This document shows positions 3,912-4,433 of a DNA stretch of 4,479 nt, piece after piece. A program made the position numbers and the translations under genes. The notes beneath the pieces were generated by a model that saw only the letters and a program-made list of their open reading frames with translations, searched no databases and was not told where the DNA came from. Origin of the DNA: a virus (Duplodnaviria > Heunggongvirae > Uroviricota > Caudoviricetes); IMG/VR virus record IMGVR_UViG_2740892229_000017; one strand, 5' to 3'. Numbering within the stretch: the stretch's first letter is position 1; each line of letters begins with the position of its first letter.

Positions 3912-4235
3912 TTACTTCATCCCGCCAATATTTTCCCACGTCCCGTCAGCACGCAGAATTTGCAGCGGTCTTACCACGCACTGTATCTGCTTTTTATCTG
4001 CATCCAGTATCACCACCTGCGTGATTACCCTGTCCTGCTCCGGAATAATGCCATTCTCATCTGACTCCAGAATGTCTGCCGGTCCCAGACGCAGTTGTGC
4101 TGTAAGCAACTGCACGTGTTCACGGCCATCATGCTTTCCGCAACCACACAGACGCTGCATAAGTTTTTTTAGTATATTCATGTCATTCTCCTGTTCTGCC
4201 TGTATCACTGCCCACTTCATCCAGCCCCTTAACAT
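3912..4235 (-). CDS. Hypothetical small prophage-backbone protein (107 aa as given; 89 aa from the internal ATG at 4181, which has a strong SD)
   Basis: ORF ending at TAA 3914-3912, translating MLRGWMKWAVIQAEQENDMNILKKLMQRLCGCGKHDGREHVQLL...GTWENIGGMK. The internal Met19 (ATG 4181-4179) is preceded by AGGAG at a 6-nt spacing. Coding status is supported by the substitution pattern against the second copy beyond the gap (6 synonymous, 5 nonsynonymous, no indels) and by the terminator immediately downstream. The 5' limit is uncertain because the contig ends at 4236, one base past the ATG. I do not recognise the family. Confidence 0.45.
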   Translation of the reverse strand: MLRGWMKWAVIQAEQENDMNILKKLMQRLCGCGKHDGREHVQLLTAQLRLGPADILESDENGIIPEQDRVITQVVILDADKKQIQCVVRPLQILRADGTWENIGGMK

Positions 4236-4236
4236 C
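4051..4236. repeat. Direct repeat copy A (186 bp), left flank of the N gap
   Basis: Aligns base for base with 4248-4433: 11 mismatches in 186 positions, no indels, by hand alignment. Confidence 0.85.
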
Positions 4237-4246
4237 NNNNNNNNNN
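4237..4246. other. Assembly or scaffold gap (10 N)
   Basis: A run of exactly 10 N characters. Confidence 0.95.
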
Positions 4247-4247
4247 A

Positions 4248-4433
4248 CCATTCTCATCTGACTCCAGGATGTCTGCCGGCCCCAGACGCAGTTGTGCTGT
4301 AAGTAACTCCCCGTGTTCACGGTCATCATGCTTTCCGTACCCGCACAGACGCTGCATAAGTTTTTTTAGTACGTTCATGTCATTCTCCTGTTCTGCCTGT
4401 ATCACTGCCCACTTCATCCAGCCCCTTAACATC
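4248..4433. repeat. Direct repeat copy B (186 bp), right flank of the N gap
   Basis: See copy A. Copy B continues past the shared segment into unique sequence (ctgccacggcccgtcacc...). Confidence 0.85.

Follow-up and report, generated by a model that had tools for sequence, protein, structure and literature searches.

We found that the apparent tandem duplication close to the right end of the window (the whole stretch of 4,479 nucleotides that was analysed) is very probably produced by the ends of two draft contigs, which overlap on one multi-copy prophage tail-fibre segment and carry alleles from different copies of it. The two contigs are separated by the only run of N in the whole window, and the features that make up the junction are the following:

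4237-4246, no strand: 10-N run, a scaffold spacer between two contigs with no measured gap; its flanks overlap in complete genomes
4050-4236, minus strand: left contig end, carrying the L allele; last 54 bp of the side tail fibre gene (4183-4236, stop codon 4183-4185) and first 131 bp of the chaperone gene
4247-4433, minus strand: right contig start, carrying the R allele; first 132 bp of the chaperone gene (ATG 4376-4378) and the side tail fibre 3' end

Realignment agrees with the original prediction, which had described an N gap between two 94%-identical copies of 186 bp. The stretches 4051-4236 and 4248-4433 (start-to-start spacing 197) differ by 11 substitutions and no indels, corresponding to 94.1% identity, and the overlap can be extended to 187 bp with 12 differences, since the G at 4050 pairs with the A at 4247. 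This pair is real and far above chance expectation; the remaining repeat families in the window are 20-30 nt long with 70-85% identity, and none is comparable to it. The 11 substitutions, seven transitions and four transversions, all fall within 4071-4176; the L and R alleles are the same from 4177 on, the final 60 bases of the left copy being those of the right copy. A recount in the minus-strand frame gives the same six synonymous and five nonsynonymous changes as had been reported (I21V, C32Y, G37D, V41G and Q42E, numbered as for the 107-codon ORF), and these counts hold because the annotated chaperone gene contains all 11 differences.

A prophage tail-fibre module bordered by effector cargo

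Every gene of the window is on the minus strand. Positions 1-4236 are collinear with positions 1952-6187 of a prophage locus that we call L002 (NZ_CP027355.1, strain 2013C-4991), whose numbering is used for two of the features below:

1-876, minus strand: nleH1-1 (effector kinase), cut by the window start; Pfam PF22303, RefSeq CDS at L002 1946-2827
1702-2721, minus strand: nleC (zinc metalloprotease effector); Pfam PF13678 with E = 4e-115, RefSeq
2755-3735, minus strand: nleB2 (type III effector arginine glycosyltransferase), the cargo adjoining the repeat; Pfam PF24688 with E = 3e-181, RefSeq
3873-3897, minus strand: intrinsic terminator hairpin at the end of the tail-fibre operon; RNA fold of -22.1 kcal/mol, z = -3.3, with a T-run after the hairpin
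3912-4181, minus strand: complete 89-codon tail fibre C-terminal domain gene; Pfam PF06820, RefSeq WP_001371738.1, CPT_434_24 in phage 434
4380-4479, minus strand: 3' end of the side tail fibre gene, which runs off the window; RefSeq CDS at L002 6134-7447, 437 aa in relatives

The product of the small gene matches PF06820 (Phage_fiber_C, 'putative prophage tail fibre C-terminus') over the full profile (1-64/64), with E = 7.9e-36 and 122.7 bits against a cut-off of 25, and the region concerned corresponds to residues 46-107 of the 107-codon ORF at 3912-4235. In both RefSeq and the phage 434 record this gene begins at ATG 4179-4181 and has 89 codons; the side tail fibre gene terminates with TGA 4183-4185, and a single base separates the two. 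A further in-frame ATG, at 4233-4235, lies upstream, within the side tail fibre gene, and differs from the annotated start. The left contig had been said to end one base past the start of the ORF; this is true of ATG 4235, but the annotated start lies 54 bp further in, and the position of the contig end one base beyond ATG 4235 is a coincidence, the end sitting in the 3' end of the side tail fibre gene. The name 'tail fiber assembly chaperone', taken here as putative for the PF06820 protein, follows the annotation of the phage 434 record. A PDB sequence search returned no solved structure for relatives of the 89-aa protein, the best match being unrelated (E = 0.82).

The translation of the side tail fibre ends in both contigs with DVKGLDEVGSDTGRTGE followed by the stop. 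In RefSeq the large gene codes for a 'prophage tail fiber N-terminal domain-containing protein' of 437 codons, with lom and J lying beyond it. At the other end of the module, the terminator at 3873-3897 is the border between the shared tail-fibre segment and the variable effector cargo. The hairpin is revealed by folding, and the annotation of phage 434 shows a terminator at the corresponding position; a consensus terminator scan made no call at this hairpin, probably because the T-run is absorbed into the stem.

Within the cargo, the interval between nleH1-1 and nleC contains a fragment of a tail fibre assembly protein (1045-1200, minus strand) and one of a YkgJ-family protein (1478-1591, plus strand), both of which carry a pseudogene annotation in relatives, together with an AT-rich near-palindrome at 1298-1341 inside a stretch of 29% G+C. 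These fragments and the near-palindrome look like remains of earlier cargo exchanges. Concerning nleC, the RefSeq start is ATG 2721 (339 codons), and a second in-frame start, MKIPSLQ, is present at 2694 (330 codons), which we take to be the usual start of NleC; the annotated 5' end of this gene may be 9 codons too long. Between nleB2 and the small tail fibre gene, RefSeq annotates a partial 'hypothetical protein' (3803-3910, minus strand) in R-type genomes (L002 and a further locus, L003), which is absent from the L-type annotation. The R-type and L-type sequences are distinguished by a small indel and substitution cluster at 3856-3867.

A single copy of the junction in related prophages

The right contig (4247-4479) corresponds to L002 6001-6233 at 100% identity, and 4050-4236 and 4247-4433 both fall on L002 6001-6187. 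The two flanks thus correspond to one and the same 187 bp of L002, on which the alignments of 1-4236 and 4247-4479 overlap. The same behaviour was observed when the last 780 bases of the window (3700-4479) were used as a query: these aligned as two overlapping pieces with a span of 579-585 bp in 60/60 complete genomes among the matches listed, and the phage records among the matches listed have an equivalent single-copy span. The suggestion that the apparent tandem duplication comes from scaffolding finds support in these 60 complete genomes, where the segment is single-copy and both flanks fall on that copy.

We also used an exact anchor of 58 nt (4179-4236), which is present in at least 120 IMG/VR loci; among these, no adjacent double copy was found closer than 2.8 kb. 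Two copies, 2.8 kb apart, are present in only one of the 120 loci, L010 (IMGVR_UViG_2698536301_000018). The scaffold of this locus has a single N at reverse-complement position 5191, in the same side tail fibre gene, then unrelated sequence, and then the second chaperone/tail fibre copy. Evidently the repeat breaks assemblies repeatedly, L010 being a second case. As a separate matter, an annotation reading '(x2) tail fiber C-terminal domain', which occurs in some genomes, was considered as a real tandem and rejected, as it corresponds to a truncated side tail fibre pseudogene bearing the same product name.

A multi-copy repeat with many alleles

Two queries, the left flank plus adjoining sequence (3300-4236) and the right contig (4247-4479), were matched in 697-698 of the 5,426 complete E. 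coli genomes. Each matching genome has the segment at a median of 12 places for the former and 10 for the latter, and up to 17, and the segment also matches 297 phage records, most of them from Stx-converting phages. With a median of 10-12 places in ~700 complete E. coli genomes, the sequence is indeed present in several prophages, as had been supposed from the window.

The full copies sampled from IMG/VR (n = 122) represent 65 alleles, which are free of indels and typically 4-17 substitutions away from L or R; the distance of 11 between L and R is typical, because IMG/VR copies are commonly 4-17 substitutions from one or the other. R is the commonest allele in this sample (10/122 copies). The comparison of L with R gives a dN/dS of 0.22, with a probability of 0.02 of observing at least six synonymous changes out of 11 under neutrality, and dN/dS is 0.17 over 74 distinct intact alleles. 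Judging from these ratios and from the exact presence of both alleles in complete genomes, L and R are functional alleles under purifying selection and no sequencing errors, in line with the earlier description of them as diverged paralogues under constraint.

A left contig with matches to two nleB2 prophages

Both alleles are found exactly in the complete genome of strain 2013C-4991 (NZ_CP027355.1), L at 1.217 Mb (locus L001) and R at 2.092 Mb (L002), that is, 875 kb apart and in different prophages that both bear nleB2. The cargo of L001 consists of nleF, a frameshifted nleH, a truncated nleC and nleB2, and that of L002 of nleD, nleH1-1, nleC and nleB2.

Over window positions 1-3855 there is one mismatch to L002, at 448, and between 3856 and 4176 the left contig differs from L002 in 21 alignment columns. 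Positions 3116-4236 are 100% identical to L001. The left contig is therefore of L002 type up to 3855 and of L001 type over 3856-4236, with a breakpoint somewhere in 3116-3855, as the two loci have a single difference (at 3115) over 2507-3855 and are identical over the 740 bp of 3116-3855. This combination of blocks was found in none of the 5,426 complete E. coli genomes, the best reaching 99.5% over 1-4236 and 99.3% over 2400-4236. The left contig has either been assembled as a chimera across the duplicated nleB2 or arisen by natural recombination.

How the junction may have been produced

We propose that an attaching-and-effacing E. coli (EPEC/EHEC-like) is the origin of the window and that, in its draft scaffold, two contigs each terminate inside a multi-copy lambdoid module made of the side tail fibre gene and then the 89-codon chaperone gene. 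The contigs would have been set side by side with a conventional 10-N spacer, their ends representing the same 187 bp of the real locus, and the merging of these ends would have been blocked by two natural alleles 12 differences apart. Since the overlapping ends carry alleles that differ to this extent, at least one of them would originate in a different prophage copy, or in a consensus into which copies had collapsed. Several scaffolders insert a minimum of 10 N between ends that cannot be merged if they estimate the gap as small or negative, which would fit two ends with a 187-bp overlap and 12 differences.

In this scenario the real locus would have one copy of the segment, in the order nleH1-1, nleC, nleB2, terminator, chaperone gene, side tail fibre gene, lom and J. 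We infer the single copy at the source locus from the relatives, and we also infer how assembler and scaffolder made the join. Homology between prophages starts at ~3890-3912, where the terminator and the chaperone stop codon lie, continues into the side tail fibre gene, and fades on the cargo side. Around the break point, the exact stretch common to pairs of copies has a median of 103 bp (quartiles 97 to 133), and exact sharing of ~103 bp is enough to halt short-read assembly. Paralogous and repetitive features of EHEC prophages are beyond the resolution of short reads (PMC5359411).

The left contig ends exactly 60 nt past the last difference between L and R, and a de Bruijn k of 61 was considered on this basis; it was dropped, as the right contig crosses the equivalent point unbroken, which is not expected from simple unitig logic.

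Alternative readings and the origin of the two flanks

Apart from the frequent recombination of prophage tail-fibre regions, the window as written is the sole support for a genuine, diverged, partial tandem duplication, in which the side tail fibre 3' end and the chaperone 5' half would be present twice, ~197 bp apart, with 10 real unread bases between them. We consider such a duplication very unlikely. No example of it was found in the 60 complete genomes or in the phage records among the matches listed, nor in the 120 IMG/VR loci; a recent event would moreover yield near-identical copies, against the 6% divergence seen here, both copies match alleles that occupy separate loci elsewhere, and the right-hand chaperone copy would stop after codon 44. 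If the duplication were nonetheless true, it would be the scar of recombination between two prophages, with a second, truncated chaperone gene left before the side tail fibre gene, an outcome to which we give just as little credence. Direct repeats of 100-200 bp that differ by substitutions only and lie at the 3' end of a tail fibre gene, here with ~94% identity, also recall the template and variable repeats (TR/VR) of a diversity-generating retroelement (DGR) acting on the tail fibre, a reading whose probability we regard as close to nil. The mismatches of the window pair are not adenine-specific: at the 11 sites the L bases are five A, two T, three C and one G, and the R bases three G, five C and three T, so that R has no A among the mismatches on the plus strand and only 3/11 on the minus strand. 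Neither the ORFs of the window nor the annotated surroundings of its relatives (~12 kb) contain a reverse transcriptase, and the DGR reading was ruled out by the mismatch spectrum together with the presence of one copy per locus in the relatives.

We therefore retain the overlap of two contig ends on one multi-copy segment, for which either flank might be the misplaced one. That the left contig is right to its end, and that the right contig belongs to another prophage or is a collapsed consensus of tail-fibre copies, positioned by reference order or by ambiguous read-pair links, has in our view an even chance of being correct. R is the commonest allele sampled, the repeat occurs at a median of 10-12 places per genome, and, of the ten IMG/VR copies that are at most one substitution from R, seven adjoin non-nleB2 cargo and three adjoin nleB2; against this, the R allele follows nleH1-1/nleC/nleB2 in the complete genomes with the closest cassette. 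We hold more tentatively, at somewhat below an even chance, that the right contig is the true continuation and that the left one is chimeric, its last 381 bp (3856-4236) coming from the second nleB2 prophage after the assembler had crossed a near-identical nleB2 repeat of 1.35 kb and exited on the wrong branch. The block structure described above is what points to this, with 1-3855 matching L002 with one mismatch, 3116-4236 matching L001 exactly and 4247-4479 again matching L002 exactly, L001 and L002 being equal over the 740 bp of 3116-3855, as does the absence of any complete genome above 99.5% over 1-4236 or 99.3% over 2400-4236. However, natural mosaics of these blocks are common, and the combination in the left contig could for this reason be a genuine recombinant: two loci (L126 and L024) change from L-type to R-type between 4083 and 4107, and ECO2947 (L125) pairs the full nleH1-1/nleC/nleB2 cassette with an L-like allele. 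Whichever flank is misplaced, the artefact is of the same kind.

The prophage copy to which the right contig belongs, or from which the last 381 bp of the left contig come, is uncertain. The original prediction had warned that neither gene content nor gene order should be trusted to the right of 4236. As regards gene order this warning goes too far, as the chaperone gene is followed by the side tail fibre gene in every complete relative.

Comparison with known systems

The module of the window corresponds to that of phage 434 (CPT_434_23, side tail fiber; CPT_434_24, tail fiber assembly chaperone) and of the lambdoid prophages of EPEC and EHEC, with which it shares the order J, lom, side tail fibre, 89-codon chaperone, terminator and effector cargo. 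It also has the same one-base spacing between stop and start, and 94-100% identity to many records. The order J, lom, side tail fibre and chaperone is complete in L001, L002, L125 and phage 434, the last having ~94% identity to window positions 3300-4479. There is no biological difference between the window and this module, the junction being doubled in the window only through the scaffold join.

The phage 434 locus (L127, OL657226.1, 18366-24349) contains a side tail fibre gene, an 89-aa chaperone, the terminator, an NleB-like pseudogene, NleC-like genes and an NleH fragment. This lambdoid phage, a laboratory classic, carries remnants of type III effector cargo.

The junction also resembles the breaks that occur at paralogous prophage repeats in short-read assemblies of EHEC and EPEC, in that a multi-copy repeat with ~100 bp of exact sharing contains the contig ends, which are joined by a conventional spacer. 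It differs from ordinary breaks of this kind in the 187-bp overlap of the ends and in their distinct alleles, which together mimic a diverged tandem duplication. What looks like a duplication is not a real feature, and the tail-fibre module that underlies it is already known.

The import of this finding concerns data quality only. Anyone annotating or comparing sequences across the gap would obtain a spurious duplication and a spurious, truncated additional chaperone gene, and could assign the right-hand tail-fibre genes, or the final 381 bp on the left, to the wrong prophage. As for the biology of these elements, it is already well described that the lambdoid prophages of EPEC and EHEC carry near-identical tail-fibre modules beside variable effector cargo, and that they recombine there.
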